Positions 1-33,846 of a stretch of DNA of 34,361 nt are shown one piece after another (position 1 is the stretch's first letter; each line of letters starts with the position of its first letter). Made by a program: the position numbers and the translations under genes. Origin of the DNA: Spirogloea muscicola (taxonomy: Eukaryota); the NCBI GenBank assembly GCA_009602725.1, contig WELB01000003.1, forward strand, positions 1,496,262-1,530,622, read 5' to 3'. The notes below the pieces were generated by a model, which was not told the DNA's origin, did no database searches, and saw nothing but the letters and a program-made list of their open reading frames with translations.

Positions 1-267
1 GGCGGGGCAGCGGGGTGGCCGCTGGACGCGCTCGGCGCGGCGAGGCGGCGCAGCCGCCGCGACCGGCGCGAGAGGGTGGCGAAGCCAGGAGGCCGGAGGA
101 GGAGGAGGAGAGGGAGGGGGGAGGGGTAATCTCGAGGGGAGGAGGAGGAGGAGGAGAGGAGGAGGGTGGAGTGGGAGGACTGCGGCTGCTGATGTTAGAA
201 GAGCCGCTGTGATAGCCAGCCAGGTGCATCCAGAGGGTGTCCATAGCTGTAGTTGCGGAACTACAGC
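1..267 (-). repeat. Dispersed-repeat segment homologous to 23202-23262, with an open frame (MDTLWMHLAG...) running off the window edge
   Basis: 182-244 (gcggctgctgatgttagaagagccgctgtgatagccagccaggtgcatccagagggtgtccat) aligns by eye with 23202-23262 (gcggctgctgatatgacagaatcggctgtgaaatgccagccagatgcatacagatgttcat). A perfect 9-bp hairpin lies at 246-267. Confidence 0.5.
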
Positions 268-734
268 CTAGGCAAAGGAGGGCCGCGCTGGGTAGGAGCG
301 CCGCGGCGACGAGACGAGCGGCGGCGACGGCGGAGGGAGCGGCGGCGGCTCAGGCGGCGGGGCTGCGCCTCCGTTTCCCACCGCCGCAGGGGCAGGGAGG
401 CCGCCATGGCGGCTGGGGAGGTGAGGCTCTGCCGAACCTCCGAGCGGCCTCGTCGATGCCTCCAGCATTCCTCCCTCCTCCCCATCCTGGCCTCTCCTCC
501 CTCTCTCCTCCATCTCCTCTCTCTTCTTGACAGCCAAAGTCCAGGAGTGACTTCCCTGAGCTGGTCCAGTTGGCTCTGGCGCCAAAGGCACCGGCTGGGA
601 GGCCCACCAGCTCGCTACGGCAGCTCGCCAGCCCAGCTCCTCTGGGCTGCCTCGGCGCTGAAATTGGTGGCAGCGAGTGCCGGTTCTGCAGCCTTATGGC
701 CGGCTGCCCCAGCTGCATGCAGGCGCCAGGGCCA

Positions 735-3121
735 ATGGCGAGCCCCGTCACGGAGCAGCCCAATGCCCCGCAGCTCGTGAGCGAGCTGAGCAACGGGTCC
801 GACAACGAGGACTTCCGTGCAGAGCTCACCTGCATCGAGTACTTGCGAGCACGGTGGGAGCTCGCGCTTCCCCCGTGTCTCTCGCTCCTTCCGCGTGCCC
901 ATCTCACATCGCCTCCCTGCTTCCTGCCTCTCTGTCTCCTCTCTCTCTCTCCCTCTCCCTCAGCCTTTCTCTCCCCCTCCTCCTGAAGAAGGTGTCTCAC
1001 GCTCTGCCTTTCTATTCTGTCTCTCTTCTTCTGGCTCTTGCTTCAGCTGGGGTCCTTCTTACTCCACTGCCTCTCACCTGCTCTCAGCCCTTTCCTCCAT
1101 CCTCCTTCTTTGCCGCCCCCCCCCCCTCCCCTTCCTTCCCCTGCCTCCCTCCTCCGCCTGACTGTCCCCCCAACTCCACACTCCTCTTTTTCCTGTGCAA
1201 TCCTCACTTGCCTCTGAAAGTCAAATTTCTCGCTGATCTGTCGCGGTGCTCGCTCACCCAGACGGGGGCCAGGGGGGCGGCGCCTGCGCCTGTTGGTCGT
1301 GGCGAGCGGTGGCGACGGCGTTTTGTCACTCTGCTGCCTGCCGGGCACGCCCATATCCCGACTCGCCGCAGTGGACGTGAATGCGGCACAAACGCACCTG
1401 CTTCACCTCAAGCGCGCCGCAGCAACGGAGGCACCACTTGGTGGGGCTGCCGCTTTCCTTGGCCTCGACGGCGACCATGGGACGGCAGCCGGCGTTGCTC
1501 GACGTGCCGCGTATGCCGCTGCCGTCCGCTTGGCGCTGCCCATCAACGAACAGGTGGGTGCCACAGTATAGTCCTTAGACCCCTCAACAATAACCGTGAC
1601 TTAATTTTGACATTATGATGCCTTTGAGTTGGAGTGGCTTGACTCCCATCTTAACTTTGACTGCGACAGCAACTGAAATTTCAGCTTGCTAGTTGGTCAG
1701 AGACTGAGCGCCGGCACCACAGAAGCGTGAGCGCAGGCATATTGGGATGCGCGGCTTGCCGGAGAGGTGTCACACGGCGCAGCAGCGAGTGGCGCATTGG
1801 AGCGCCTCAGCGCTGGTGTGCGGCGCCGTTTGGCGGTGCGTGGAGTCGACATCGGCGCACTGCTGCGCCTGGAGCGCGATGATGCCGTGCTGCCTGGCGC
1901 CACGGGCGCGTCCAATGAGATCCTGCGCGCTGTACTTGGCGGCTGCCTTTCCCAGGCCGCCATTGCGGATGCCTTCCAGGTCCGCAGTTAACTGCAGCCC
2001 AAGTTACTTCTGTGCTGTCGCCACCGCACGGCGTGCTGACGTGCCTGCAGTGGCTCTCAAGCCGTTGCCTGCAGATGGAGAGCCATGGTGCATGGGGAGT
2101 GCTGAGTGGCCATCTCCCGGCATTTCGAGCAGCCTGGATTGGTGACAGCCAATTTCCACACTCCACCCCCTCCTCCCACCACCACAAGATGCTTCAAGCT
2201 AAGTCACGTACTGCAATCACATGGATTGAAGATGAACATGGACATGGATGAACATTCTATGGTCAAGTTCTTCCAAGCTCTTCAACTTGCGCGTGCACTG
2301 CAAACTGCATGGCTTTGATGCTGACAAATGTCGGCAGCGCTGCGTGTGCAGAGGGCCTGATGGCACAGCTGGCTAGCAGGCTGGCCGGAGGTGCCAATGC
2401 CGCGATGCACCGCTTCTTCGCAGGCCGCCTGCCTGAGGGTGGAGCCTGTGGAGGTTTCCCACTATACCTCACCAACGAGGGCGCCGCAGCTCTACGCGCC
2501 ACGGCAGTGACAGAGGAGCCCAGCAGCGGCGCCGACTGCGTGCACCTGACTGTCCACGTTGGCGATGCCGTCGCTGTGGCGCAGTGCCTGTGCCGCGAGG
2601 TGCAAGCACATGCCAACAGCGATGCGGCAGTCACAGCTTGATGGCGCTTGTGAACGCCATCAGTGCCCTCCCTCTTCCTTTGCTTCCACCCTCTCATCCT
2701 ACAAGTGCGGGGGTCGCAGGAGGGCGCCCCCTTTGACCTCATCACACTGTCCAACATTGGCGATTGGATGAGCGATGACAAGTTCTGCACCTTCGTCAAG
2801 GCCACAGCCAGCTGCCTCGCCGATGAAGGTACGTGCTGTGCGGCACTCGCCGGCGCATGCCCGCTGTGCACTCTGCCTGAGTGCCGGCCTCGTGATGCCA
2901 CGGCACCGATGACTAATCTTTTGCACCTCCCTCCTCCATCTCTCTATCTTCCAGGCATTCTCCTGCAACGCCGCATGGTTGGTCGGCAGCGTGCAGCATT
3001 TGAGGGGTCTCTCCACGTCGATGAGGCGCTGCTTGCCGCCGTTGCCGAGGCGGAGCGCACATGCGTGTACTGGCGCCGTACCGATGCTGTCATGGTCGGA
3101 GTCAAGCGGCGCTTGGCATGA
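735..3121 (+). CDS. DUF3419 / BtaA-like (SAM:diacylglycerol 3-amino-3-carboxypropyl transferase-like) protein, 7 exons
   Basis: GT-AG exons at 735-853, 1262-1553, 1737-1979, 2075-2141, 2352-2599, 2720-2828 and 2955-3121 join in phase. Motifs NEDFRAEL, LLVVASGGDGVLSL, LAAVDVNAAQTHLLHLKRAA, AYWDARL, FPLYL and FDLITLSNIGDWMS match my recollection of DUF3419 proteins. Confidence 0.75.
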
Positions 3122-3480: not shown

Positions 3481-3948
3481 CAGTCATACCTTGTTATAGG
3501 CACGTCGGCCGGTTTGGCGAAAATATGTGACTATATCGAGGGTGTGCTTGTTCGTTGTAGAGGCACTATTGCCCCCAAATGTGCTTCTACCGTGACAATC
3601 AGCAACATATCAAATTATATTGAAAGATGGCTTTTTGGGTTCAGGTTTAGGGTTAGGGTTTAAAAACTAGACCCTAACCCTAGACCTAAACCCTAAACCC
3701 CACACCCTAAACCCTAAACCTCAGCCCTAATCCCTGTAGAGAATATGAGAGATATGTTGATTTGTTTTCATATTGGCACTTCTAGTGGGGGAATCTGCCC
3801 CGTAAAACTGTGCCTGTACATAACGGCACGTTCCCTTATCGAGTCACATTTGCCTGGGGGAAAAAGTGCTTCCCGCAAAATGGTGCCACTATCGAGGATT
3901 TAGGGAAATGTGCCCTTATCTTGGGGTGCCTATAACGAGGTTTGACTG
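3481..3948. mobile_element. 468-bp MITE, pogo/Tc1-mariner type
   Basis: 23-bp terminal inverted repeats: CAGTCATACCTTGTTATAGGCAC (3481-3503) versus the reverse complement of 3926-3948, CAGTCAAACCTCGTTATAGGCAC (21/23 match). TA flanks both ends (3479-3480, 3949-3950). Weaker sub-terminal inverted similarity is present and no ORF is evident. Confidence 0.85.
3633..3735. repeat. Degenerate interstitial telomeric repeats, inverted (TTTAGGG-like then CCCTAAA-like)
   Basis: G-rich units at 3633-3661 (tttagggttagggttt) face C-rich units at 3671-3735 (ccctaaaccc...ccctaaaccctaaacc). Confidence 0.85.
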
Positions 3949-4512: not shown

Positions 4513-7500
4513 TCATACAATCTGACCCACATTGCGCATGAGCATGACGCGGGTCTCCGTCATGTCCTCCATGGCGTACCGCAGGCCCTCGCGGCCCAGC
4601 CCCGAGTCTTTCACGCCGCCGTATGGCTGCCATCGAGAGCAACACAAGGGGCATCAAGCTCTGCAGACATGTGGGGCCCTATACGTGTTTGCAGCTTTGG
4701 CAGGATGCACACACTGTAGCACAAACACTCGAGTCATCAACGCTCACTTGCGAGTCAATGCGCATGCTTGGCACATCGTTGATGCACACGCCGCCAACAT
4801 CAAGGTGCTCAAATGCATAGAAGGTCTTGTTCAGGTCCCTGGTGAACACTCCAGCCTGCAGTGCTCACCGGAGCTTGGCTGTTAACAGAACATAGTGACT
4901 TGGAGGTCGCTGCCACAGGGCCTCGACTTTGGTTGGTTCACTTAAAGAATACACTGATAATATTCACACATCCTTAAAGCGACCTTCAGCGTGGCCACAA
5001 GGATGAGGAGACCGTAAACAGGACTGGCCTTTTTACGACACCCAAGACAGCGCATCGATTACCTGGAGCCCAAACTTTGAGGCATTAACATCGTTGATTG
5101 TAGTTACGAAGTCGTCGTAAGGAATGAGCACCACCACGGGCCCAAAGACCTCCTCGCAGTGGACCTGCGCAAATACGATGCAAGACAATTGTCTACATCA
5201 GCTCCTTGAGCTGGCCAGCGAGCTAGGAACAGTCATTCGTGGAAGTTCAGTGCACTCTCTAGTCCAATCAGGGTTGTGGAGTGTACTAAGGCACGGCTGC
5301 ATGCTGGTCAGGTAGAGTCTGTGCACATCATTTGAAGCACTACCTTCACAGACAGACGAGTGCTCACCTCCATGTCAGGCCTCACATTCTCCATGACGGT
5401 TGCCTTGTAGAAGACGCCGTCGCGTTTGCCACCTATCAGGACTCTGTTGTGGGGAAACGGTGGCAAACCACATGAGCTACAGATGTGTTGTCAGCAGAGA
5501 CGGCACAATGCATGAGCCGTAGAAAGGAGAGGTAAGGCCTCCTTGTTTTGGCAAGAGTTGCTAGGGTGTAGTGGTTACCGCGCCCCATTCTCAACTGCGT
5601 GGTCCACCCACTGCTCGATACGCTTGGCCTCTGACTCGGCAATTATTGGGCCTATAAATGTCTCCTCCTCTAGTGGGTCCCCCTGAGACAAGTGCTCAGC
5701 AGTCTCAGAAGGGCCTCGTGGCAATGTACTTTTTGAGTGAGAAATATCATAAGAGTGATGTGTTTACACCATCGTGTTACACGACATTTGGCTCGCATCC
5801 ACTTTCAGCAAGTGAGACAGCACTTGCTGACTTCATCATACCTCTTTGAGCTGCGAGACTGCCTCAGTCAGCGCCCCTTTCACCGTCTCATAAAGGTTCT
5901 GCATAGGCAGAGCAATGAGGAGGATCTCAGTGGCACGGATATGGATTCCTTTTCGTTCCTGAGTGGGTGTCCTCTATCACACAAAGTGACGCCCTATTGC
6001 CTCATTGCCTGATGCATCTCTAGTTTCTGCTTTCCGCTGGTACCATTGCAAGCTCGTGAGATGGACAAGGCAAACTGCACGATTTACAGTCAAATTAGTG
6101 ATAGTTGAAAGTCTGTCATGCCTTCTTGATGTATATCCGCTGCACGCTGATGCACGACTGCCCACTCTGGTAGAAACCACCGTGCACAATGCGTGCAATT
6201 ACACCGCCAAGGTCAGGCACTAGCTCCTGTCACACCAGCAGAACAATGCATAAGCAGGTTAATCAAATGACAGCAGAAAGCAAGACTAATTACCTGCTGA
6301 AATGGAAGCAGGGTGGGTCTGAGCCCTTGTAAGTAGTCATCTCTGCTATTGATGTTGCTTGGGTAGCAAAACAGTGCTGAGGATGGCTGAGCCTTTAGCA
6401 AAGTGGGAAGCATACGTCAACAATGCAGGCAGCATTGCCGCCCAGCTCTAGCACCACTTTTTTCTTTCCAGCTCGAGCCTTCATAGCCCACCCAACCTGT
6501 TGCGGACAAGCCATATCAATATGTTAGGTGAAACCACGTCAGGTAGGTATCAGCATAGAATTGGGCACTGAGTCTCTCCAGGGGGCATTGCAAAACCTGG
6601 CAGCAACACAGCACGGCGATGCAATTGCAGAGAGAGAGAAGAGCAGCTAATGAGAGACGGAACACACAGATGGGGACCCCGTGAAGGAGAGGAGCTTGAA
6701 TCTATCGTCCGTTGTGAAGAGATCAGCTCCATCTCTAGCGCATGGGAGGATGGAAAATGCTCCTTCCGGCAGGTTCGCACGCGACAGGATCTCTCCGAGA
6801 AGAAGTGCCCCGATGGGCGTACGGCTGCAAGCCAGCGGCAAAGCGGCAAAGCGGCAACAAGGATAAGGAATCATCTCACGGAAGTTGGCGTTCAGCTGAT
6901 GCTCATGAAACCAGGTCAATGTGGTTAAGCCCCAAGCCTGCATGAAGGTGGCAGTCCGCACCTAGCAGGCTTCATCACGAACGGGCAGCCGACAGCAAGC
7001 GCCGGGGCAATTTTGTGAGCAGCCTGAAAAGCAGATGATCAGCAGTCAGAGCATTGCAGCTGCGTGTGACAATCTCACAATGTAGCACATTGATTGCCTG
7101 CAATCAACTCAATGCCACATGAGACAGGAGGATCCTTGCGGCTCGCTTAGCGACGGGCCCAAGGGCTTACCAGATTGAGGGGGAAGTTGAACGGGCTGAC
7201 CATGCTGATGGGGCCTATCGGGAACCTCCGCACCTGTCAGCAAAATGTGCAGGGCTCCACCCAATCACGCCACCAGCAATCAGGATGCAATTCATGGCAC
7301 AATTACCAGGTCTGACAGCATCGCACCATGTCTTCAGTCACACAACTTGGAAACCGTGGGCTGTTCCTGCATACTGTAAGGCATGCACCAAAGATAGCAG
7401 CTTACCAAGGACTGGTAACCCTTTGCTCTTTCTGAAATGTCTATGGGGGCATACTCGCCATACCTTCACCTCAGCACAAGCAGGAGTAGTGTCAGACCCA

Positions 7501-8477
7501 TATGTCATTTCTCCGGGATGCAGCGAGAAGGTCAGCATGTCCCAGAAGTATTTCTATTTGCTGGCGGTGAGGAGACAGCTTGCATGCACAACTATTGCCT
7601 TGGGCCTTGATTGGACACAACTTGGACTGGGCACGGCTAATCCACAGTATAAAGCTAGGATAGCTGGACTGCGTCAATGGCCATGGGCAACAAGGACTGG
7701 TGCTTGCTTACATACGGACGCTCTCCTCTGCAGCAATCTGGAAGGTGTCAATGAGCCTCTGCACCTCTCCTCTTGAGTCCCTATTGATCATGAACGAAGT
7801 GCACAATTAGTAGCCAATTAAATTATCACTTGGTGAATTTGTTATGCCCAATCTGATGGTCCACTCTTTCTGGGAAGGCTTTATGCAATCTTCAGAGAAT
7901 GAGCACCAAGTACCTCGAAGCGTCAACCCAACAGGACCTGCTGAGAGCAGGGCCGGTAAGGGCAGCGGGCTACCTGATGGGCTTTCCAGCCTCCATGCAG
8001 AGGGCCTTGGCAAACTCCTCCGACCTCGCCTTCACCTCCCTCACAACCATCTCACAGACCGCCTTGCGCTCGTAGCTGGCCATGGCTGCCATTGCAGGCG
8101 CAGCCCGCTCTGCCGCTGCAATGGCCTCCTCAATGTCCGCTGCATGCGCCAGGGCGCACCTCGCGCCCACCTTGCCTGTTCCAATGGATATGGATGCTCA
8201 TGGGTGTGGCTACATGAAGCAGAAAAGCTTGACAACAATCTCACCTCTAGTAGCAAAGATAACACACAGAGGAAGTGAAGCTGTGAACGTATGTAAGAAG
8301 ACCGAGAGCACATGTGACACACTTCAGCCAGCTTGTGTTGAGCCTGAGTGTGACAAAGTAGGCAGTTCTGGAGCATAACAAAGAGGAAAGACATAGCACT
8401 AACTCACCCGTGTACTTGTTAGTGACCTCCAGGTCTGTGTTGGGCTGCTTGGCGACGTTAGCGATGTAGAACGGGTA
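4513..8477 (-). other. ALDH21: C-terminal domain of the fusion: ALDH21-type aldehyde dehydrogenase
   Basis: YPFYIAN...[52 protein letters not shown] (catalytic Glu), [13 protein letters not shown] (catalytic Cys), [34 protein letters not shown] is certain; the family-21 call rests on recalled sequence similarity. Confidence 0.85.
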
Positions 8478-11400
8478 TGTGGTGACCTCCGACTCTGAGG
8501 TGCTCGCTTCTGCCCTTGGCGGAGCTGCACTCTGGTGCTCAGAGGCCCCTTCCTTGCTCGCAGATTGCAGCATGCCGAACTCCGCCGAGGACACCTTGAC
8601 TGGCGCTTCAGCCTTCGCGGGGCCAGTGTTGTCTGTCAACAAAGGGGCCCCACCAGGGTGCGGGACGTCCGCAGACTTCTCGCCCGTGTTGATGTCCGCC
8701 TCGTCGTCCTTGCGCGCCGGGACGGAGGTGAGCGTCGAGCCGCAGATGGCTGGGACAGCTGCCACCTCCTTGAGCTTACCGTTGAGGACCTGCACATGAT
8801 ACCGCCGGTCGGCAGCCATGATAAGACATGCTGTGAAGGTCTCACAGATCAAGTAAGTGATATCGACCACAAGTATGATCACGGTCATTCTTCATATGGG
8901 GTTTTGGCAATGGCAGCCAGATTGATGACTAGATCTCACGTTAGCCTGCACGTGGTCCTTGCGGACGAGCCCAGGCAGCTCCTTGTCAAGCACCTCATTG
9001 TCCTCAGTGTAGTCAACCGGGACCTGCTTGCAGCAGCTCAGCGCTGAGCTTAAGCACACAATTGTATGCAGGCAGGCACAGTACACAGCAAGAGCAGAAC
9101 ATGACATAATAGACGGCAATAGACGAGCCAAGTCCGAGACCGACCTCAATGAGCTTGACGCCAGGTAAGACGTCAAGGCACTGGTGCAGGATCTCGAGGA
9201 ACTCGTCCGCCTTGGTCACACGGAAGCCCTTGGCTCCGTAGCTGGTGGCTCACAGTGCCCTCGCCATAGTCAAACACCGAAAACAGCCGGCCAGCAGGAC
9301 ATATTCCGAGGTCATGTAGATCAATCATGTCAACCGCTATTCCTGGGTGAGGTGTGGAGACAGGGGCCCACCTGTTGGCATATGCGACAAAGTCGGGGTT
9401 GTCCAGTTCCAAACCGAATCTACCAATCACCATTTCCACCAATGCAAGGAAAGGGGCAGTCAGCTCACAAAGTTCAGTGGCAGGCTAAGTAGGGAGACTA
9501 TTAGAGTGGTTGAGGACGCAATGTTGAAATATTCAAGTATGGCCCCAAAAGAAGGACATGCCAATCTTCACATGGACCCCGCTTAGCCTGCCCGCGCCGC
9601 GACCCACAAGGGCACAATTCTATCCAAGTTTGAAGGGCTCCGCACTTGTTGAACCCCGCCGCATGCTGCTTCCACTTGATCATGCCGTAGCCATTGTCGT
9701 TGATGACAATTACAGTCATGTTGAGCTTGATTCTGACCGCAGTCTCCAGCTCCTGTTAACCAGGGGTAATTGTCAGAATTCACAAATGAGGTGACATAAG
9801 CTAATTTTGGACAAGATATCTGTGACCACGTGAATTGGAATCATGACTACTCGAAGAACAGTAGTTAAGTAGAATGGTCATATAGTTATTCCACTGTGAC
9901 TGTCCCTGGCTCCACCATCCTTCCACATTCTGAAGCTTGAGGAAGCTTACGAGGCCCTTCGAAGAAGCTTACACGGCTTCGGCCTCGTACAATGCATGCG
10001 CACCTGCGAATTCATCATGAAACCTCCGTCGCCGCATACAGCCACCACCTTTTTCTCTGGGTAGAGCAGCGAGACAGCCATTGCCGAGGGCAGACCGGCG
10101 CCCATTGTGGCGAGTGCGTTGTCAAGCAAAAGAGTGTTTGGTTGATAGGCCTGTCAAGCACCTCCTTGCTTCCTCAGTACGGTGAATGATTCTTGAAGCC
10201 CATTGGATATAGTGACTGGCAGAATAACTATAGAAGGCATTGCAGGACTTGAGACATCCTAAAGTCAAAGCCTGTCTCGTCTTCGTCAAGCTCTTCTGTA
10301 GGTACCATGTGGAGCGAGCAGCACTGATCCAGAAGCCTTGTGGTTCACACTGCACCAACCTTGTAGCAGCGTGCAAAGTAGATCTTGTACATGCCTGCAT
10401 TAGAGAGAGCAAGATGATGCAAAGGGTGATCAAACGCAGACCAGCCTGCTGCCTGCTCCAGTAACAAGGATCTCTAGCATCTCCAGATGGGGACATCATA
10501 CCACGAAGCAGTGCTCAAATGGCGAACCCACTGGTCTAGAATAAGCCAGCAAGCCATGTCTGCACTTAGTGTCACAATGGACAGAAGGAGATGTGAAACC
10601 CGCTTACCGTTGTCCAGACAGGCGACACCATCATCTGGGAGTGCTCTCCTGCGCAGGTTGATGTGGAAAAACTTAGCGCACGCATGTTGTCTTGAGGACC
10701 AACGTGAACTTGGACTCGCAGGAGGACCAGGAAATACACTGGTGAGTCCAAAGCTAGGTAAGTCGAGATAAAATGCTGTGAAGATAAGCACCTCACGTCG
10801 GCCACAACACGCTGTGGGGAGAGGGGAAAGGCCGGGTTGTCAACATTTTTGCGCAGCGAGTCCTCAAAGTCCTTCTTCACCTGCGCGTTGGTCCCAGAAA
10901 AGGTAACCTTCAGAGGTCAAGCTTAAAAGCTAAGCTTGCAGCTGCATATGGAGTCTAAGCTTGAACCTTATAACCTGCACCCGTGATACTTAGAATCATA
11001 ACACTGCAAGGCTGTGCTGGGTAAAGGGGGAGGCAGGCAGCAGCTTGACAACAGTCTCGGAACTCTATTGGCTGGCACAGGATGTCCAGGTCCACTCACG
11101 CCCATCATGAAGGAATGGTCCCAGTGGCTCTGGGGCTCCAGGCGATTTGTGAGCTGCCAGACGGCGTTGGCGATGTCGCCAACAACCTCCAGCTGCGGGA
11201 AGTAGACGTTGTCTACCTTGGCGCTGTAGAAGTTCACGTGTATCACCATTGGCGGCTCGTTGTGCCTGAAGCTCCCATCAAGTCACAATGGTGGCCGTCA
11301 CAATATGAATTGGAAGACAATACAACTTCTTCCCAATATATCTCAGGCAGTTAGCTCCTGCTGGATGGACCTCTCTGGATCCAAGAGGGAGGTGTGCTGG

Positions 11401-13232
11401 CTTAAGAGGGTGGCCATTGCCTCATAATGAAGGGCGGCTTCTCGACGACGTCATGGCCAATGTTGATGATGAGATCCGCAGTCTCGCAGCACAGATGCGG
11501 GAAGTCGTTGGCGGACAGCGCGCAGCAGCCAAGGCACAGCGGGTGCGAATCTGCGCACGCTCAGTCAGTGCCGCCCACCAGGATCCTTCAGCTCACATGG
11601 CTAAGTAAACTGGTCTTCATGCACGCTGCAGGATCGCAGGCTTTCTTGATGCGTGAGTTAGCCGTGGCAGAGTCCCTGTGCCAGCTTATGTGGAAAGGAA
11701 AGTGGTCAGCGAGGCATCACCTGGGACGACGCCCTTGCCCATCTGCGTTGTGACAAAGGGAACGCCGAGCTTGTCGACGAACTGCCTCAGCCTGCCGCCA
11801 TCAGCACTCACCGCAGCAAAAGTGAGCGCCCTCTTCGTGACAGCCTTAAGGCCAAGGGCGCGTCCCACTCAGGCATTGCTTAGTATCCAGCTTGAAGCAG
11901 CAAGAAGCTTAATATCACTGCAGACTGGATATACCATACCCCATGAGAAAGACTCGACGGTGAGCTACTACTTGGTAGCAGTTCCACTGTGAGCTTATCA
12001 CCTCGTAACCTGCTTTGACAATGACCTTTCTTCAATGCAGACATGCATTGAAAGCTTGAGCTTGGTTGAGGAGCCGACCGGACGCCTTAGAGCTTAGCTG
12101 CAGTATGGCTGCAGCAACATACATCTTTTGGGTGAGTTTGCGGTTGGCGCCGGCGCCAATGAGGAGCAGCGGGCGCTGGGCGGCCTCGATCATCGCGACA
12201 GCCTTAGCAATGGCCTTCTCCTCGGCGACGGGCCGCCGAACCTGGTGCACCGGAAAGAGCTCGGCGTTGGTGAGCGTGCTTGCAATGTCCTCTGGGAGCT
12301 CTAGGTGCACCGCCCCGGGCCGCTCCTCCATGGACAGCCGCGCCGCCTCTCGTACGAGCGACGGCACCAGGTCGCCGTCGGCAATCTGCCGCGTATACTG
12401 CAGCAGGAGAAGCAGGCCGGCCGACGGCTTCAATTCAGGCCCACAGTCACCCGAGCCACTGATGCAAGTTCTCTGAGGTGCACAAGTGGGAAGTGCAAGC
12501 AGTTTGCTTATCAAGTCAATGTACATTTAACACTAGTTGAGCGTCAGACGTAAATTGGTGGAATTCGAGGGTGGTAGCACCTCGCACCTTGGTGATGGGT
12601 CGCAGATTCTCAACAATGTCTACGATCTGAAATGAGCCCTGCTTGCTCTTCCGTATTGGCTTCTGACCCGTAATCATCATCTGCGCTCGTCTCACCAGCC
12701 AAAGTATGTTAGGGGTGTCAGGGCGACGAGGAGAGCCGTCGCCGCACTGATGCAATGTGGCCGTCTCAGCTTGGCGCGGCAGCCAGCAAGGTGCTCGAGT
12801 TGAGGTGGGGGGCCGACCATGGGGAAGCCGGCAAGCTGAGCATAAGCAGCGGCGGTTGTGAAATTGGTCGCGCCGGGACCGAGCGTGGAGAGGCAGACGC
12901 CGCACTGGCCTGTCAGGCGGCCAACGGTGGCGGCCATGAAGCCCGCCGCCTGCTCGTGCCGCGTCACAATCAGCTTGATGGTCGAGGTCTGCAGCGAGTC
13001 CAGAAGGTCCATGTTCTCCTCGCCGGGGATGCCAAAAATGTACCTGCACCATTGCTTTCACGCGGCATGGAGCAGCTCAGCATGCCGCCTGCAGAACTTT
13101 GGGCAGCAGGCATTCGTGGGCAACGAGAGCGGCGAGCAGGAGCAGTGTGAGCGCGCTCCCGACTCACTCGATGCGCTCGTTCTCCAGGGCCTTGACGAAC
13201 ACGTCCGACGTCTTGCGCTTATCGCCACCCAT
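4513..13232 (-). CDS. Fusion protein: ThDP-dependent acetolactate-synthase-like (2-oxoacid decarboxylase) enzyme + linker + ALDH21-family aldehyde dehydrogenase; 30 exons, 1137 aa
   Basis: Exons: 13232-13168, 13043-12818, 12680-12588, 12397-12123, 11791-11721, 11550-11421, 11265-11100, 10880-10792, 10648-10608, 10394-10360, 10150-10004, 9752-9646, 9419-9372, 9241-9145, 9023-8940, 8789-8408, 8175-7974, 7780-7712, 7463-7406, 7233-7171, 7023-6962, 6824-6668, 6496-6416, 6226-6122, 5898-5842, 5682-5579, 5443-5368, 5164-5063, 4855-4748, 4626-4513. They sum to 3414 nt, every phase is compatible and there is no internal stop. Confidence 0.85.
8940..13232 (-). other. N-terminal domain of the fusion: bacterial-type acetolactate synthase large-subunit-like ThDP enzyme
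   Basis: [42 protein letters not shown] (catalytic Glu), [32 protein letters not shown], ThDP motif [15 protein letters not shown]...[11 protein letters not shown], and IEVPVDY. Confidence 0.92.
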
Positions 13233-14170: not shown

Positions 14171-14639
14171 TGCCAGAGGCGGATGGTGGGGCAGGAAGCT
14201 CGGAAGGAAGCCGGCGGGTTGCTGGCTGGCGGCGACCGGGGTGATGGGGCACGAGGCGAGGGGCTGGACAGGGCTTTGAGCGTGTGGCGGGGAGGGCAGC
14301 GGGCGGGGGCGCAGCGGAATAGGGGAAGTCGGGGTCGGGGGGCGCGGCGAAGAAGGAGCGGGGTGTTTTTTTNGGGTTGGGGAGCCCGGGGGGGGGGGGA
14401 GGGCGCTGACGTCAAGGCCGACGCCCCCGCCGACGAGGACGTGACCCGGCGGCGGCTTTCGATGACACGTTTGGGGCCGTCGACTGCCTCCTACGATATC
14501 CTTGCCCAGATGTAATCAGGTTGGACGCTAACAACAACACCAGAAGTGTATTTAAATTTTCAACCTGATCCGACTTGTCACGTCTGCGTCCGCTGCCGTG
14601 ACAATGCTCACGTCCGCGTTCGCGTCGAGCACGCGTCAC

Positions 14640-14701
14640 CACGTGGCAGTGTCGCCACGTGGCGCGGCCTCCTTGCCACTTGGACTCGTTTTAGGGTTAG
14701 G
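14640..14701. promoter_or_regulatory. Two G-box/ABRE motifs and a telo-box-like element in the divergent intergenic region
   Basis: CACGTGGC at 14640-14647 and 14656-14663; TTTTAGGGTTAGG at 14689-14701, about 230 bp upstream of the TAF1C-like ATG. Confidence 0.45.
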
Positions 14702-14929
14702 TTGCTGTGCTCTCAAATTGCCGCCTCCGCCGCCTCCACTACCGCCGCTCTCGCCGGCGCCTTTTCCGCCGCCGTCGCCGCTACTGCTGCTCTCACCGCC
14801 GCCAATTCCGCCGCCCCCGCCGCCGCCTCTTCCGCGGCCTCTTCAGGCCCATCGCCGCCGGCCCGTTGCCGACGTGGGAGCGAGGCTGCCGAGAGCCGCG
14901 ACTTCAGCCCCGCTGCGCCCGCAGATGGC

Positions 14930-17900
14930 ATGGCGGCCACGCCGGTGCCGAGCCTGGCGCCGGCCGCGCCCCCCGTGCAGCTGCTCGTCACCGGCGCGGA
15001 CCTGCGCCCGCCAAGCGCCGGGCCCTCGCAGGGCGGCGACCCGCGCCTGGTGAGCCCCTGCCGGACCTCCCGCCCCAGACGTCACGGCCTCCGCGTCGCC
15101 CTGCCCGTCGTCTCCGTTACGTCGGGAAACGCCTCGAAGCCGTGGATCCCGACCAAGTCTCGAACCCTCAACCTCAAGAATGAAGCTCTTATCCCCATCT
15201 GTGCGAAACCGTGTACGTAAGCCCAAGCCCTGCTTCGCCTGCTGCGTGCGCAGGTTGCCGAGAGCGTGCTGGCGAGCCTCCCGGGGGTGAACGTCCCGCT
15301 GCACCTCCTGCAGGGCCTGGTGGCGGAGGACGCGGCGCTGCGCAGCCGCGCCGCGCTGGACGGCAACCCCCTGGCCGGCTGCTGCCTGCAGTCCATCCAG
15401 GTGCTCCTCTTCACCGCAGCAGCATCATGGCGGTGCTCGATCTTCGGCCTGTCGTGTCTGCCGCTCGGTGTAGCATTTGAGGAGCACATTCACTGAGGAG
15501 CATATCAATTGGAGCATGAGGCTAGATTATACATCCAAGTCAAGGTCGGGTCATAGGAACTGTCAGGTACGGTCATGCAGGTGTCAGAGTCACCTTTTTG
15601 TGAAGCTAACTCTGGTGTAGCACAGCTTAATGTGAGCTGTATGTATGCCGTTATCGCAACGCCTGAGTTTGGTAGCACTAAAGCTTGAAGCCCCTGAAGC
15701 CCCTGAAGCCCGTGAAGCGCCTGAGTCCCCATTTCCTCTAGCCTTTATGGTGATAGCCGCTGAGAAGTCTGAGCAGAATAGGGACCTGCAGGCCCACATT
15801 ATCAGTGAGCCCTTGCACATGGGGCCATACTCAGGCGGCGGCTGAACTGGCGTGTCAAGTCACCTCTCTGCAGGCGCCCAGCGGGGACCTCCACGTGTAC
15901 TTTCCCACGGGGCGCAACGGCGCGCAGCTCGGGGGGGCCCGCTGCTGGAGGGACGCTTGCGGGAACTGGCGTGCGGCGCAGAATGAGAATGCCAATGTGG
16001 ACACAGAGTTGGTGGAGGTGGCGGCAGTGGCGATGAAGGAGGGGCGGAGCAGCAGGGAGTTCAATGGAGGAGATGGTGACAGTGACGAGGGCGGAGAGGA
16101 GGAGGTGGAGGAGAGTGGCGAGGGAAGCAGTGGCAGCGATGACAATGGCAGTGAGGGCAGGAAGGGGTCGGCGGTGCATCAAGGAGGGGTGGCGCAGTCC
16201 AGCGGCGACTCTGCTGGAGAGGCAGCAGGAACGCCTGTTCCAATGACGCCACCGATATGGCGGGCGAAAGCTGCGAGCGGCAGCCAGCGCGTGGTGCATC
16301 CGCTTCGCACGTCGCCGCCTGGGCACTACGTGCTCACGGGGCCGCTGGACCAGCCAATCAAGCAGGTAGATATGCACTGAACCCTTGCACTGCTCTTGCA
16401 GCCCAGCAGCCCGTGACCAATGACAGTGACGACTACTACCTAAGTTACATCTATAACAAGTCCACTAGCATTGACCACATTTGCTGCTTAGTCAATAGAA
16501 CGCTGTTGGATACGTTGTCAAAGTGCGTCCAGCCATGGCACGCCCTTCACCAGGACCATCAGGATGCCGTTGGGCCCCAAGTGTTGCAGATGCTTCAAAG
16601 TTTCTCTCGCTTGCCTTGAGATAGTTGCTGCGAGATGACAGCACCTCTGACTGTACTTTGCGGGTGCATTGCTTGGTCGAGAAGCTCGCCGCTGTAGCAG
16701 GTGATGGCATGTCAGCGGGCCTTGCGACGACTCTCATTGCTGCCCGGACATTGTCAACCATTAAGGTCTTTCGGTTGTCACCAAAGGTGAGCAGAGTAGA
16801 CTCTCTGCATCCTGCATATAGAATGCATACTCCTAGCATCTGTCAGCCGTCAGTGCCTTTGATAGCTCCGCATAAGGGCCACTCGCAAGGCTCTTGAGCT
16901 TCTCTGGTCCATCAGCCTGCTCATTTCATTGAGAGCACTAGAGCACCATTCTGCACCTTGGTCAGCAGAGTTGCTGGACCAGTTCACCTCTCTAGTCTCT
17001 CTTCTCTTCCCATGCCTCTCCACCTCCATTAGCTAGTGTTTGCCGAAGTTGCTTCTCATCTGGGCTCTTGCGAATGTTTGCGACCTCCAACAGGAAGCTG
17101 GCAGCGCGATTGAGCTGATCGTGGATGCGAGATTTTCGAGGTGCCCATGCCATGTAAGCTTCCCAACCATGAAGTTCTCCGTTAGGCTCAGAAAAATTGG
17201 CTCAAGCATCATGCTTCTACATGTATTTGGCAACAGGGTCAGCGTCTGTGTTCTCGGCCTGGACCTACGTGGTGATACCTCTTGATCAGCGTCAACTGCT
17301 TATGCACTGTCTGGATATAGTCATCTGGAGTGTGCTCTCTGTGCTGTACCAACCAGATATCTGGTTGGTTGCATAAGGTCTAGGATCACAATGGAGGACG
17401 TGCTTACATATGTCATTGTTCTTGGCAACTCCCGCACAACAAAGTGAGAGCACCCCTCAGTTGAGATTGCCAATCAAAAGGGACTGTCCTGCAGACTCTG
17501 TTGACGCTGATCTGGAGGTGCTACCGCTAAGTTCTTGTATAAGGATGAAGGCTTAAGTTGATACATATGTAGAAGATGGAAGAGCACCTGTATTTGACAT
17601 GGTCCTTTGTGCGTAGTAGAGGGTATCCGGCAAGCTATAACTTGTCAACTGCATAGCTGGCTTACATGTCCTGTTTGTCAAAGTGCAGCATGGAATCTAC
17701 TTCATACAGTTGTGCTCGTCTTGCAATGTGAGCACGTATATCTATGTGTTTTTCAAGTACAGCCAATTACTCAACCCATCTTTGACCACAAGATAGTGTG
17801 CTCCCAACACATGCATGCAGGTGGCGTGGAATCCGTACTTCCCGGGCACAGAGGCGGCTATTGTGCTTGATGATGGCTCATTGCACCTCCTAAGATTTCG

Positions 17901-20900
17901 TCGGGGAACGAGCACCGGCCTGCTTGAGGCTGCACACGTCCCCGTGGCTTCGACGGAGGACATGTGCACTGGCAGCCAGGTGGGTGTGGCTGCAGCGGCA
18001 GAGAACGCATCAGGGCTCTTGCCTGCAGCACAAGGCTGGTGGCGCTGCGAGTACGGCGGGCACCCCAAGACGCTGCTCGTGGCGTCACAGCGCCACGTGT
18101 ACCTGGTCAACGTGAAGGACGGCCTTGGAGGTACACACAGAGTTCACGGCTTGCAGCTTTTCAGCTGCTTGTACTTGAAGCCCCAGCTTGTCATCATCAC
18201 AGCTGTGCTAAGTAGCATACTTGCTGTCCAGGAGTCTGCTCCACAGTGTCTTGACAAGATGGCATCTGCACCTTCAGCTCGCTGATGCTTGACCAGCAAT
18301 GTCAACTACCCTGCCTCATGTTGACAAGCAGGCTCGTCAATCCGGTGCCTCGTGGATGCCGCCGGGCTCCATGCTTTCAGCCTGTTGCGGTCGCCGCGAG
18401 AAAGATTCTGGTCCCTGGCGACGTCCAGTCCCGTCGTCGGCGGCAATGGCTTCCACTTTGCTGTAGCTGACGCCTCGCACGTGATGCTCTTTGACGTGCG
18501 GCAGCCCCAAGCAGCAATGCTCCAGGTCTTCCAAAACTCCTGATCCTCACCAATCTCCTTACCTTATCAGGTTCTGCACGTTCTTGTAGTCAAAGGCTTA
18601 TGAATTTGGCAGTAGCAATTTGACAGCGGTATGCTCAAATGCAGAAGCTGATTGGGACGCTTTCTATGAACGTCATTGCTTTCCTTGATCTGAGGATTGA
18701 GTCTGTGGCATGGTACCCAGTGGGAGCACTTCATGGACGAGCCGCCCCAACTGCTTTTCATCCTCCGTCATGCGGATGGTACACAAAGATGCTCACTGCT
18801 AGCAAGACGAATTTGTGGCGGCGGGCTGCTGCCATGGCTGCCATAGTAATGCCCTGCTTTTGAATTCCACTAACAAGAGTGCGATCCCACTCTGAAGCCT
18901 CTTAGAGACACACGTAGTCCATGAGCCTAGACAATTATCTGACATCTGCTCATCGCAAGAAGAATTTAATATTACGTCAAAGCCAAAGCTGCACCAGGTG
19001 TCTTCTAAAGACGGCTAATTTGTGAAAGCCGGCTGCATGGCTTAGCCACTTGTGGACGCCATGTGCATGAGACTCAGCTTTGCATCTGCAAGTGCTGGTG
19101 CTTAGTAGACCTTAATGAGCACTTGACCAAGCAATAACCTTTCTGGTGGAGGTGAAGGCATAAGTCACAACTCCTTCTTTCGCTTATGCTATCATCGTTT
19201 TTGCTTGCACAGGTCATATGATTGTAGCAGCTTCGCTTGTCTCCGGAAGAGTCAGCTGCTTCCCGTACACCTCAAGCAGGCCAGAAGGTGCTGTGGACGT
19301 ATTGTCCAAACATTTACAGAAGGGACCTGCCGTCCTGATCGTGAGCCCTACTTCCACGGTGGAGAGATTTTTGGAGACTCCTGGCAACCGAGTCCTGGAG
19401 GGGCCGGACTCCATGGCAAAGCAGCGACTGGCTGGAGTTGCGCTTGCGCCCAGTGCCAGCAATGTTGCCATCTTGAGGCTTTCATCCACTCGTGGCCGAC
19501 TGGTGATCCAGGATTTTGTTGCATACCTGGAGGGCCATGGACTTCGGCGCAGTCACAGCAAGCAGACTGACTACAGTAATCCTTGTGCGAACTTGAAGAT
19601 GGACAAAGTGACAGAAGCTTTGCAAGGTATGCGCCCACAAATAGCAGCGCAGCCATTTGAGCTCTTTGAGAAGCTGGCATCCTTTCAACATTTGGTGCAT
19701 GCTTGATGCAGCTCACTGGCTCGAGGTCAATTGGGCATTATACTTAGGATGCGCGGCTCCTGTGGCTTTTGATCCTCAGATCGTGCACGTGCGTCATCAT
19801 TTCCAACAAGGGCACAGCAGGAGCTTCCAAGTGTGGTGGATTGTATCAGTTGAAAGATCCAGTTTACTTGCACCATTTGTACTGCCTGCATTAGACACTT
19901 CCATAGCTGTCACGTGCTGTACGTAATTGGAATGTGACCTTGACCTTGATATAGACATGAAGACAGGTCATGCATTGACCACCACTCGTCCACCAAGCGC
20001 ACTTGCGAGGAAACGGAAGGCAGGCAACCTTGACCATACCACAGGAGGGTTGACGCAGCCTCAGCTTGAGGCTAGATTTCAGCAAGTCCTTGAGGATACA
20101 AAAGAGCCCGTGACACTGTGAGCTGCCTGTTGCAGTGGCATATACTGCTAATTTACCAAATTCGCTGTTGCACTTTCCATTCACTGACAGTGACAGATGA
20201 GGTATAGGACAGGCATACAGTGTGATGTGGATACAGGTCTTCTCGGTCAGATTCAAGTATGGGACTCTGGGGGTCCGCATCAGGTGATGATGACTGCTTT
20301 GCTGCAACAGGCGGGAGCTTGTCGTCCAGCTGCATCTGGAGCAGCTGCCGCCGTCGCTTCGCAGCTGCACAGTGGCGCTTCCGACAGACTACAGCAACTT
20401 TGTGCAGCACTGGCACCGGCTTGGGTATTCGCCAGCAAACATAGAGGCCGAGCTGCAGAGGCTGAATGGAGTTGTCCCAGAGCCAAGGGATGCGACGATG
20501 GGGAATCCCCAAGCCAAGGCGGACCTCCAGCGGCGCGTCCACCGCAGCTTCCAGTCAATCACAAGGGAAACGAGAACTGCTGACGGCACCAATGACCAGT
20601 CGCGTGCCAGTCATGGGTCTCATGTGCCGCAGGGTATACCACTGGCCGTGATGTTGGAGTTGGCGGAGATATTGCGTGATCTGAGGGCTGCAGCCGCCAG
20701 CAGCCCATGCTTTGAAGACATCCTGCAGAGAGAGGCAGAGCTTGCCAACGCACTTCGGCTGTGCCTGAAGGAGCTGCCCTCTGAGGCAGGGAGACTGTCA
20801 AAACGGCAGCAGCTATCTGATGGCGCTAGTAACCGCCACCTGGTGTCAGCAGCTGCGAGTCGGCTGCTCCTCAATCAGCTAGTTATTGCTTGTTCGCCCG

Positions 20901-21397
20901 GGCCCGCCTGGGGGAGCTTTGCTAGCAGTCAGCGGTGCTGGACGCCAATGTCAGAGACAGAGGAGCGGCTGCTGTGGCCGCACGCCACCATAGTCCTGCC
21001 CCATGGTATCGAGCTCTGGCGCCGGGTGGCGGCCTCAGCGCTACCAAATGAGGAGCCCAGTGGTGATGGCAATGTTGTGCCGCTTGAAGGTGGGTGCCCA
21101 TGTAAGGCTCCCCCTGTGAATAGGCCCACAACCATGACTACTACATCCTTCAGCTTAAGACCTCAATTCAGAAGCAGTAACTCAGGGCTGTAATGATTGC
21201 AACTTGCCATCACATTATCTAGTTTGCCATCTCAGCTTACAGCTGCGTCACTCTTTCTTTTGAGATGATGACAACAAGAGAAATGATTGTCTGCAGAAGA
21301 TTGTGTGGATGAGGAGGTTGCTCTTGCCGAGCTCCAAAATGCATGGCTCGCTTGGCAGGCCCTTCCAGCCCCCACGCAGCTCGAGCCGCAACTCTAG
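14930..21397 (+). CDS. Multi-exon TAF1C-like protein (RNA polymerase I initiation factor subunit C, beta-propeller); ends tentative
   Basis: Exonic peptides LHVYFPTGRNGAQLG, VAWNPYFPGTEAAIVLDDGSLHLL, WWRCEYGGHPKTLLVA and HFAVADASHVMLFDVRQPQAAMLQ resemble recalled plant TAF1C blocks (FFPTG, WSPH, W.GCEF.WHP, DVRKP..P.LQW). Candidate last exon ends at TAG 21395-21397. Not all exons were resolved. Confidence 0.6.
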
Positions 21398-24119: not shown

Positions 24120-24283
24120 TTCGGACCTCCCCCCACACTGCCTCCTCACCTCACCTCCGCCTCCCCCACCTGCCGCGCCTCAGCAGCCGCACCCTTCTCC
24201 CGCGAGACCAGCGAGCGCCGCGGCGGCGGCGGCGGCGGCGGAGGAGGAGGAGGAGGAGCGCGGCGCGGCGCCGAGCGGCCGCC

Positions 24284-24353
24284 ATGTACGGCGGCGTGGA
24301 GGCGTACGGCCATGGCGGCGAGCCGGGCGCCAGCCAGTTCGCCTCGGCGGTTT

Positions 24354-24395
<42 letters not shown>

Positions 24396-26224
24396 GTTCT
24401 CGAGCCAGAGCACAGGCCTGCTGCCGCTGACGGTCAAGCGCATGGCCACGGCGGCGCCCAAGGGCGCGGCCGACGAGTCCTTCTCCATCGACGGCCAGGA
24501 CATCAACGCCGTGAGCCCGCCGACGCCGCCGACGCCGCCGCCGCCGCCACCGCCGCCGCCGCCGCTTACCTCTGGCAGTCTGCCGCGTCTGCTGGCATGC
24601 CCACGTTGCCGCTGCTGCACAGCATGGAGCTGGGCTACAGCAGCTGCGGCGTGTATGGCAGGTCACGGTGGTGGGGCGCGTGCTGTCTCGCGAGGACAAG
24701 GCCACAGACACCACCTTCCTGCTCAACGACGGCACTGGCCAGATCGAGGTCAAGCGCTGGTACTGCCGCCACCGCCGCCGCCGCCGCCGCTGCGCCGCCG
24801 CCGCTGAGCAGCGCATGGTGGCTTGGTGCTCAACTCGCACCTCAGGGCTGTTTTGACGCGAAACACTGAGGGTCGCGGCTAATGGTGCTGCCAGGAACAA
24901 TGGTGAGGACATCGGCGAGGGCCAGGACCTGGCTGCCATCCAGTAAGCGAGACTGAGGCACGGCACCGAGCGCGCGCGGCGCCCACCGCTGCCGCGGCCA
25001 CTGCCGCCGTCCCCTGCCACTGCTTGTCCGCTTGGCTAGTGGCGGTGGCCCCCCTTCTCTGACTTCACCAGCATGGCCGCCGTCGACTGTCGGTTGCAGG
25101 ATTGGGGCCTACGTCCGTGTGCACGGCCACTTGCGTGTCTTCCAGGGCCGCAAGTACCTCGTTGCTTTCTGCGTCAGGTCCAGGCACCTTTCCCGCCAAT
25201 CCTTGAGAGTATCAGAACATCTTATGTCAATGATCACTTGACTCTGATAAAACTGGTCAATCTCAACAACTACTGATAGTCCTTCTCCTTCACGAGGAAT
25301 TCTTGTTTGTAGTGTCCGTCTCGGCGGCACTTGACGGTACCGTGCTTGGTCATGCAGGTCCGTTACGGACTTCAACGAGGTCACGTTTCACAATCTCGAG
25401 TGCATATTTGTGCACCTTGCCGCTTCGGCGCCGGCTGCACAGGTGAATATTGGCCTGTCACGCTACTGAAGCTGCTGCTGCACCAGCCTCTGCAGGAAGC
25501 CTGAGCTGCCGCCCTTTGCTGCCGCTGCCACTTGTGACTGTCTTGCAGCCCTCTGCCGCTGTTGGTGCGTCCGACGGACCTTACGCGAGGCCGCCACCGT
25601 ATGCTGCCACGCCGGTCAACCCTGTCAGCGGCGCCGGCGCCGGCATGGGCGATGGGCAGGGCATGGATGACGTCCAGAAGGTCGTCCTTGGTTTCTACGA
25701 GAACCCCAAGAACGCGTGAGTGGTTGCCACCTTTCCGCCACCATCGAGTCTGTCCTTCATGGCCACCATCAGTAAAGCCAACCCCATGGTAAAGGTGTCG
25801 TTGCCGCGGGCTTTGGCACGGATGACTTGAGTAAGCTCTGCAAGAGATTGTTAAGAAGCAGCGAGGGGTGACGGCGCGTCAAGTCTGCCGTGGCTCATAC
25901 AGGGAGAAGGAGCAGGGCATCTCGTGGATGGAAGTGGCGGGCTCGATCCCAGGTTACAGCAGGGCGCAGATCAAGTACAGTCCCCTCGCGCTCTCCTTGC
26001 CACCATCTGCAGCAGCAGGAGGCTGACTAGCCCTCTCCGCATGCCACCTCCTGCGTGACAAGCGATGGACAACCCTCTGAGGCACTGGGCAGGGCCTGTT
26101 TCCGATCACCCGGCATTGGCCCCTGCGCTTGCGCGTATGCAGAGCTGCGGTCGACTTCCTGGTCAACGAGGGCCAGCTGTACTCCACGATCGACGACAAC
26201 CACTTCAAGTGGACCGGCGCCTGA
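24284..26224 (+). CDS. RPA2: Replication protein A 32-kDa subunit, 8 exons; apparent frameshift in exon 1
   Basis: Exons 24284-24510, 24662-24759, 24895-24942, 25100-25177, 25358-25442, 25549-25715, 25903-25974, 26143-26224. Motifs GLLPLTVK, FLLNDGTGQIEVKRW, YVRVHGHLR, VTDFNEVTFHNLECIFVHL and the winged-helix end AVDFLVNEGQLYSTIDDNHFK. Confidence 0.93.
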
Positions 26225-27133
26225 GCCGCTGCTCCCAGCTGCTCTGCTCCAGCCTCGTCGTGCTCCCAAGTGGCCACAGCTATGGAGCACCTACAGGAGC
26301 TGAGATGTCAAGGTTGAGGTGATCAACCACGGTCGGCCGCCTGCATGCGCAAGTGGTAGTTGGGGAGCACCTCGATGGTGCTCTCCAACCTGCAGAGCAC
26401 CCACGGTGCTACATGCGCCGCACCTTCGGATGAGCTCGTATTCTGGCCTCCGAGAGCAATGGCGGGGAGCTTGTTGCATTGCCAGCTTCCAAGCCTTGGC
26501 AATAGCAAGGCATGGAAGCCATTCATGCCTCTCTATGCCGGCATAATCTTACAACCGAGCACCAACTCTGGGGCCAGCACGAGTCCCACAAGGTCTTGGG
26601 CCAGTGTCAGTGGATCTCAAGCTGGTTAGACAGCGTCGCAGTGGCGGCCACAGAAGGGCCGGCCCACTGAGGAGACCAGGAGTTGGGCTGCAGAGGAGCA
26701 GTCGACGCAGGTTCGCGAGCTGCAGGAGGTCCAGCAGGCTCAGCCCGCCAGGGCGAACAAGCGATTGTGTGAGAGAGGCCCATTATCGAGCAAGAATTAC
26801 GATACATGACTACGAGATTAGTCAAAAGCTAGCCGGTTCAGACGAATAGATCACGAATTTGATTCGCGGCGGAGGGCGAGCAGCTGCTGCTGGGCCGGGC
26901 GGGGCCACGGGGGGGTCCCACGTGGGAGGGAGGCTGGCGGATTTGGGGGGCGGCGGGCGAGGCGCCGGTAATGCGTACGAGCGGAGGGCGGGGAGGGGGG
27001 GCGGCGCCGCCCTGCGGCAGGCATTCCGTCAATCAAGGCCCCTGCCCCCTGGCCCGCCCCGGCGTCCCCCGCTCTCCGCGCCGGCTTCCGCGGCGGCTCT
27101 CGCGGCGGCATTCGCCGCGGCGGCGGCGGCGGC

Positions 27134-33309: not shown

Positions 33310-33846
33310 GCACTGCTACCACCTGCTGCTACTTATTGCCCTCAGCGCCAATACTGCACTGTTGTCAAAACAATGCTCAGGCTACACGTAGACCTGGATT
33401 GAGTCTAAGCATCATGATCATGAGCAAGCAGAGGCTGCGGGAGATAGCTGTGCAGGCCATCACGGGCGCAGCGGGCGAGGCCAAGCAAGCCCCACCATAC
33501 CATGGGCTCGGCAGACGGTACCTGTGCTACATGCTCTCCAGTGGAGCCTTAGGCTTGCCGCAACATTAAAGCATGGACGCAGTTTTGGCTGTGGACGCTA
33601 CAATGGCGGCTGTAGCAATGCCTAGAAGAGTCGCTATCCAAATTCCTCATGGCCGTCGCAACGAAGAGGGGTGGGCCGAGCGGTGTGCACCAGTTGGCCA
33701 GCGCCTCTTCCTTTCCAGCGACTGAGTGCTCTTGGCCTGACTACAATAATGTCAATGTACAACAAGCAGGCGAGAGGTGTGGCCGGCTATGGTGCAAGCG
33801 GAGGCAACCAATCTGGACAACATGGTCTGCCAGTACGTCGGCTCGC

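Follow-up and report, generated by a model that had tools for sequence, protein, structure and literature searches.

A spliced gene of Spirogloea muscicola joins a likely 2-oxoglutarate decarboxylase to the aldehyde dehydrogenase ALDH21

Cyanobacteria are the main known source of a bypass that leads from 2-oxoglutarate through succinic semialdehyde (SSA) to succinate by way of a thiamine diphosphate (ThDP) enzyme, OgdA or KGD, and the SSA dehydrogenase SsaD; passages of one paper describe an ogdA-ssaD operon (PMC5160925), and passages of another place a 2-oxoglutarate-to-succinate route with an unrelated enzyme in Euglena and mycobacteria (PMC4224347). A second system is moss ALDH21, which passages of PMC7823795 present as a tetrameric, cytosolic, NADP+-dependent SSA dehydrogenase belonging to the γ-aminobutyrate (GABA) shunt of lower plants, an enzyme that drought induces in mosses and whose expression protects tobacco and cotton. 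Its substrate is produced by GABA transaminase in mitochondria, according to part of a recent preprint (bioRxiv 10.64898/2026.01.13.699213). Here we describe a gene in a 34,361-nucleotide stretch of Spirogloea muscicola DNA (contig WELB01000003.1, positions 1,496,262 to 1,530,622; hereafter the window) that encodes both kinds of enzyme in one polypeptide, an N-terminal ThDP-dependent domain (N-domain) followed by an ALDH21 domain (C-domain). The N-domain would carry out the ThDP/Mg2+-dependent decarboxylation of 2-oxoglutarate to CO2 and SSA, and the tethered ALDH21 half would oxidize SSA with NADP+ to succinate and NADPH. Judged from sequence, we consider it fairly probable that the fusion performs this two-step conversion, and the predicted site is the cytosol.

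The gene model comes from all three frames of the minus strand, with splice sites then set by coordinate. It runs from an ATG at 13232 to a stop codon ending at 4513 in a single 1137-aa frame without internal stop, interrupted by 29 introns of 121–331 nt (27 GT-AG and two GC-AG). GC content at third codon positions is 0.74, compared with 0.51 across the introns, and the window as a whole is eukaryotic, intron-rich DNA. Spliced contigs from one run of one study, taken to be RNA from the presumed type of the run, contain 28 distinct joints that together cover all 29 introns. A single joint crosses introns 9 and 10, its 32 intervening letters matching exon 10, and the domain-joining intron 15 (8790–8939) is crossed by a contig with 44 letters on its shorter side; among the spliced contigs of this run, none covers the entire gene. 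The fused gene that the original prediction had drawn at 4513–13232 is thus borne out as a single-polypeptide fusion, and it is conserved in eukaryotes. The public model of the locus (SM000003S11205) is the same except for eight residues missing after the catalytic cysteine, because the GC donor at 6122, which is backed by spliced contigs, was overlooked. Some contigs show sequence differences suggesting sister copies. Furthermore, a second copy of the ALDH half (P0293; 98% over 384 columns, modelled at 420 aa) bears the same label prefix; it probably represents a sister copy whose model is incomplete.

The N-domain scores 834.6 bits on the NCBIfam model PRK08322 (NF006187), whose curated cut-off is 509, and stays under the cut-offs of the AlsS models PRK08617 (438.8/510) and TIGR02418 (395.6/551) and of the acetohydroxyacid synthase (AHAS) model TIGR00118 (340.5/538). 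All six tested proteins that carry the motif type of cyanobacterial KGD (D-V-G) also pass the PRK08322 cut-off, and an AlsS control fails it. In a FastTree phylogeny of 102 N-domain rows (six aberrant rows excluded), the D-N-G branch to which the Spirogloea domain belongs (35 rows, support 98) nests among D-V-G-x-x-K proteins, and AlsS-like proteins form their own branch (support 100). Because the D-V-G proteins pass, the AlsS control fails and D-N-G nests among D-V-G-x-x-K, these sequence criteria place the N-domain in the OgdA-containing family, in a branch without an assayed member that we could find. The original prediction had likened the domain to cyanobacterial 2-oxoglutarate decarboxylase, which agrees with these results; of the phylogeny it envisaged, the separation of AlsS-like rows was obtained, and the relation to OgdA goes by motif type.

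Structural comparison puts the domain within the three-domain ThDP fold, with a TM score of 0.90 to 4RJJ by target length. Its nearest solved relative by sequence is PDB 13BB (E 6e-148), labelled 'acetolactate synthase', and its closest solved folds in the Foldseek library are catabolic acetolactate synthases (ALS) at 31% identity. For comparison with Microcystis KGD, residues were taken from passages of the paper and from its model file (PMC10418658). The ThDP catalytic residues E50, M410, D435, D462 and Y465 of KGD correspond to E52, M413, D438, D465 and Y468, Y531 corresponds to Y535, and the docked 2-oxoglutarate contacts K386, A408 and K471 are retained as K389, A411 and K474. Each of the two lysines occurs in 318 of 327 aligned domains of close relatives, the rows that lack one or both being nine distant paralogs and one frameshift-like protein. 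Neither lysine is present in eight AlsS-like representatives.

Moss ALDH21 (5MZ5) is the top PDB match of the C-domain both by sequence (E 4.6e-188) and by fold, as expected for the ALDH21 half originally predicted. Alignment equates moss R121, R457 and Y296 with R761, R1096 and Y935, and the catalytic E906 and C941 are present. Moss R228, which reportedly binds NADP+, matches R867. The arginine and tyrosine residues singled out earlier in EVQRL, FYQSG, PSMRID and LPCAR prove to be the equivalents of moss R121, Y296, R457 and R228, with a constant offset of +18 in the alignment. Equivalents of R121, R457 and Y296 are retained in 99, 98 and 97 of 99 ALDH21-like domains, respectively. In the moss enzyme these three residues hold the SSA carboxylate, according to part of the same preprint (bioRxiv 10.64898/2026.01.13.699213), and by analogy the C-domain would use SSA and prefer NADP+.

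In bacteria, an aldehyde dehydrogenase gene lies downstream of the decarboxylase gene on the same strand, in fusion order, at 67 of 80 loci (56 ALDH21-like and 11 of other types). Three of nine scanned partners match best the NADP SSA dehydrogenase model PRK09406 (578–622 bits, under its cut-off of 730) and thereby echo the ogdA-ssaD operon. Partners of a third subfamily, at about 33% identity, retain the R/Y/R pocket (in 74 of the 78 rows that are less than 50% identical), and 41 full-length bacterial proteins have such a partner fused to the decarboxylase, the named ones being from Obscuribacter and Melainabacteria. By sequence, then, the partners fall into three ALDH subfamilies, and nearly all of them have a carboxylate pocket. 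Bacterial fusions stand apart from the eukaryotic ones in both the N-domain and the ALDH tree; therefore the fusion arose at least twice. The Obscuribacter/Melainabacteria-type fusions share the same decarboxylase branch, keep R/Y/R and have Asn where moss ALDH21 has R228, a hint that they may prefer another cofactor. A conserved third gene was sought in the bacterial loci and not found, the neighbours being specific to lineage or family and forming no catabolic cluster. One locus (L007) has a glutamate-synthase-domain gene (PF01645, 2455–3945) immediately upstream of the decarboxylase-ALDH pair.

Family membership, the pair of substrate lysines and the spread of partners over three ALDH subfamilies, assayed SSA dehydrogenases being known in two of them, together lead to the reading 2-oxoglutarate to SSA to succinate, and from family, lysines and partners we infer 2-oxoglutarate as the N-domain substrate. 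The predicted cytosolic location follows from an absent N-terminal extension. Only seven residues precede the conserved domain (0–18 in 11 streptophyte-type fusions), and therefore there is no transit peptide, as the original prediction had it. A candidate upstream exon with a transit peptide was rejected: the loose contig ends at 13262 and 13265 resemble adjacent window sequence by eye, as a diverged 5' untranslated region and not a new exon.

AlphaFold models two well-folded domains joined by a disordered linker at residues 572–657 (pLDDT below 50). Across eukaryote-type fusions the linkers measure 44–122 aa and are 6–9% identical, compared with 64–77% in the domains. Being disordered, unconserved and variable in length, the linker is a tether and not a channel. 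Of the earlier proposal that a reactive aldehyde passes between two tethered active sites, the tethering therefore stands and the channelling falls. By analogy with homologues, both halves would assemble as tetramers, and the benefit may lie in holding a reactive aldehyde close to its sink.

Homologues were drawn from the best 120 of 5691 and the best 120 of 144 matches. Among the matches listed, the fusion occurs across Zygnematophyceae, ferns, liverworts, chlorophytes, a red alga and a thraustochytrid, namely in a Mesen1-labelled protein (presumably Mesotaenium), Ceratopteris, Riccia (two), Calypogeia, Bryopsis, Ostreobium, Coccomyxa (two), Elliptochloris, Rhodosorus and Hondaea and in several unnamed proteins, with partial fusion models in Adiantum and Marchantia. 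When 50 fusions were aligned, all 27 of eukaryote type, several of them from transcript assemblies, kept the 11 key residues, with one Y-to-H change. Stand-alone N-domains are found in Physcomitrium and Sphagnum, mosses carrying the halves separately, and stand-alone ALDH21-like proteins in Klebsormidium and Rhodelphis; no flowering plant appears among the named matches listed. The Klebsormidium nitens protein (GAQ88729.1) has an extension of about 90 aa, rich in Ser and Arg, which resembles an organelle transit peptide.

In an N-domain tree with near outgroups (54 chosen rows, root support 72), the 24 eukaryote-type domains group together (SH-aLRT 99) within non-cyanobacterial bacteria, which suggests one early eukaryotic acquisition from such a bacterium; most likely the eukaryotic fusion goes back to a two-gene unit of a non-cyanobacterial bacterium. 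When rooted on distant outgroups, the ALDH tree has bacteria falling inside eukaryotes. Because of this and of the weak root, we do not claim a single donor lineage. Moss stand-alone N-domains fall within a streptophyte branch (100) whose other members are fused, and the separate moss halves would have arisen by later splitting, on the evidence of the N-domain tree.

Several points weigh against a 2-oxoglutarate to succinate function. Relative to Microcystis KGD the N-domain pocket has five changes (Q254 to S256, V382 to N385, A384 to M387, H385 to Y388 and L467 to M470), its motif type is D-N-G-M-Y-K and that of KGD D-V-G-A-H-K, and among members of the D-N-G-x-Y-K branch we found no assayed enzyme. 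The KGD contacts with 2-oxoglutarate derive from docking on a predicted model, and K386 and K471 are not among the KGD mutants described in passages of the paper (PMC10418658). Both lysines occur in 49 of 97 full-length representatives from the best 150 of the wider family; a pair this common is no proof of 2-oxoglutarate use. The tree position of cyanobacterial OgdA relative to the D-N-G branch is read from motif type only. Moss ALDH21 is not clearly nearer to the C-domain than bacterial homologues are (59% versus 56–57%; bacteria 61–64% in another comparison). Thirteen of the 80 bacterial loci have no ALDH inside the flank (three of them cut short), and the sample is skewed, with 30 Burkholderiaceae. 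RNA support comes from one study and is possibly mixed with sister copies. Finally, in moss aldh21 knockouts, GABA and glutamate are doubled and succinate is about 20% lower, as reported in part of a preprint (bioRxiv 10.64898/2026.01.13.699213); by analogy this build-up also fits a GABA-derived substrate, and fits either source.

The main rival keeps the two-step design and changes the substrate to another dicarboxylic 2-oxoacid, such as 2-oxoadipate (to glutarate semialdehyde and glutarate), or to a broad range of dicarboxylates. The five departures from the assayed KGD pocket suit it, the R/Y/R pocket requires just an aldehyde with a distal carboxylate, and, in the passages available, KGD specificity was examined solely against monocarboxylic oxoacids (PMC10418658). 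We nevertheless hold it to be unlikely, since the sole assayed ALDH21 is an SSA dehydrogenase, the same N-branch is also paired with GabD1-type SSA dehydrogenases, and the flanking genes vary by lineage without a catabolic cluster, the glutamate-synthase-domain gene at L007 being the one such neighbour directly upstream.

Alternatively, the N-domain could be a carboligase (an acetolactate synthase or a 2-oxoglutarate/glyoxylate ligase) with the ALDH21 half serving the GABA shunt independently, as its database label 'acetolactate synthase', its nearest solved folds, the separate moss halves and the GABA build-up in the moss knockout would allow. This appears quite improbable given that the domain fails the cut-offs for AlsS and AHAS and does not group with AlsS-like proteins, and that an aldehyde product is implied by its recurrent pairing with carboxylate-pocket ALDHs and by at least two independent fusions to them. 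Plant AHAS is plastidial, whereas the fusion has no transit peptide. An ALS role for the N-domain is unlikely; Marchantia als mutants do not survive without supplements, according to part of a preprint (bioRxiv 10.1101/2022.08.31.505973), though the compartments differ. That gene prediction merged two neighbouring genes can hardly be right: retention of intron 15 would bring a stop near 8892, the whole gene is not covered by any one contig and the sister copy is modelled as ALDH only, but intron 15 is crossed by a spliced joint and the fusion recurs in the 27 eukaryote-type proteins.

A wider scenario, in which the fusion is a 2-oxoglutarate to succinate enzyme, seems to us just on the probable side. 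A bacterial-type, GABA-independent bypass of the TCA cycle yielding succinate and NADPH would have entered eukaryotes once from a non-cyanobacterial bacterium, become fused as a cytosolic enzyme, and persisted in green and red algae, thraustochytrids, liverworts and ferns without being recognised. Its back half would be ALDH21, which mosses separated from its partner and flowering plants lost together with it; the missing source of cytosolic SSA would be the moss 'ALS-like' protein, which is unannotated. If so, the fused decarboxylase would provide the ALDH21 substrate in place, while GABA transaminase works in mitochondria; algae, liverworts and ferns would gain a way of turning 2-oxoglutarate into succinate in the cytosol with a yield of NADPH; and a large bacterial family mislabelled acetolactate synthase would be re-annotated. 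Marchantia, Ceratopteris and Physcomitrium are open to genetics.

Elsewhere in the window, degenerate plant-type telomere-like repeats (3633–3735; 7-bp unit, about 10 copies, inverted arrangement) lie interstitially downstream of the fusion gene. Other genes lie on the plus strand, among them an intron-containing gene with a DUF3419 match (about 260–3120), a large multi-exon gene with no Pfam match in three open frames tested (about 14500–21200), an OB-fold gene with a weak Pfam OB match (about 24200–26300), which we take to resemble the replication protein A 32-kDa subunit, and a gene with ankyrin matches (about 27780–33570), presumably similar to a Shaker/AKT-type potassium channel. Two dispersed repeat pairs, 13707–13810/23292–23394 and 14096–14162/22734–22800, are 85% identical, one direct and one inverted, and are possibly remnants of one mobile element.

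Table 1. Window coordinates of the fusion gene, its domains and residues (Pp, moss ALDH21).
Feature	Position	Strand	Description
Fusion gene	4513..13232	-	30 exons; 1137-aa PRK08322-family ThDP enzyme + ALDH21
Exons 1-10	13232-13168, 13043-12818, 12680-12588, 12397-12123, 11791-11721, 11550-11421, 11265-11100, 10880-10792, 10648-10608, 10394-10360	-	
Exons 11-20	10150-10004, 9752-9646, 9419-9372, 9241-9145, 9023-8940, 8789-8408, 8175-7974, 7780-7712, 7463-7406, 7233-7171	-	
Exons 21-30	7023-6962, 6824-6668, 6496-6416, 6226-6122, 5898-5842, 5682-5579, 5443-5368, 5164-5063, 4855-4748, 4626-4513	-	
ThDP-dependent domain	8973..13211	-	aa 8-547; exons 1-15; NCBIfam PRK08322; likely 2-oxoglutarate decarboxylase
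ThDP-domain residues	12955, 10386, 10030, 9671		E52, K389, D438, K474
Intron 6	11266..11420	-	GC-AG; contig joint of matching length 155, cut ambiguous
Intron 15	8790..8939	-	150 nt; GT-AG; phase 0; connects decarboxylase exons to linker/ALDH exon; spliced joint in contigs
Linker	8489..8750	-	aa about 572-659, within exon 16; disordered, unconserved
ALDH21 domain	4516..8477	-	aa 663-1137
ALDH21-domain residues	7758, 6736, 6172, 4762		R761 = PpR121, R867 = PpR228, Y935 = PpY296, R1096 = PpR457
ALDH21 catalytic residues	6448, 6154		E906 = catalytic Glu, C941 = catalytic Cys
Intron 24	5899..6121	-	GC-AG; donor overlooked by public model

The fusion is apparently undescribed. A literature search, which reached few subscription papers (Kopecna 2017 and Zhang and Bryant 2014 not among them), returned no description of it and no paper joining 'ALDH21' with 'acetolactate', and the available passages of a 2025 ALDH review contain no ThDP-ALDH fusion and no mention of 'acetolactate' (PMC12041015). 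Passages of PMC4224347 propose for land plants a plastid 'OGDC' that carries an ALS annotation; this is a different claim. Other proteins likewise fuse an aldehyde-producing domain to an ALDH (PutA, PaaZ, AdhE and ALDH1L); PaaZ channels its intermediate, as part of that review states (PMC12041015), in contrast to the long, disordered, unconserved linker here. AlsS/BudB and AHAS have the same three-domain ThDP fold, and differ in family cut-offs, branch, transit peptide and, for AlsS-like proteins, the absence of Lys at both substrate positions. The cyanobacterial OgdA/KGD and SsaD bypass (Synechococcus PCC 7002 A2770/A2771, Synechocystis Sll1981, Microcystis MAE_06010) is closer: there too the ThDP enzyme was labelled acetolactate synthase, it falls in the same NCBIfam family by motif-type proxies, its catalytic residues and both substrate lysines are kept, and it is genetically linked to an SSA dehydrogenase (NADP-dependent in cyanobacteria; here by fusion and at the 67 bacterial loci). 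Unlike that bypass, the eukaryotic enzyme is one polypeptide, its partner is ALDH21 and not of the GabD/SsaD type, and its decarboxylase differs in motif type and at five pocket positions and nests among non-cyanobacterial bacteria. With moss ALDH21 (Physcomitrium patens, PDB 5MZ5/5MZ8/5N5S) the fusion has R121, Y296, R457, R228 and the catalytic Cys and Glu in common, and neither has a targeting peptide; the moss enzyme stands alone and is read as part of the GABA shunt, whereas the fusion carries its own likely source of the aldehyde.

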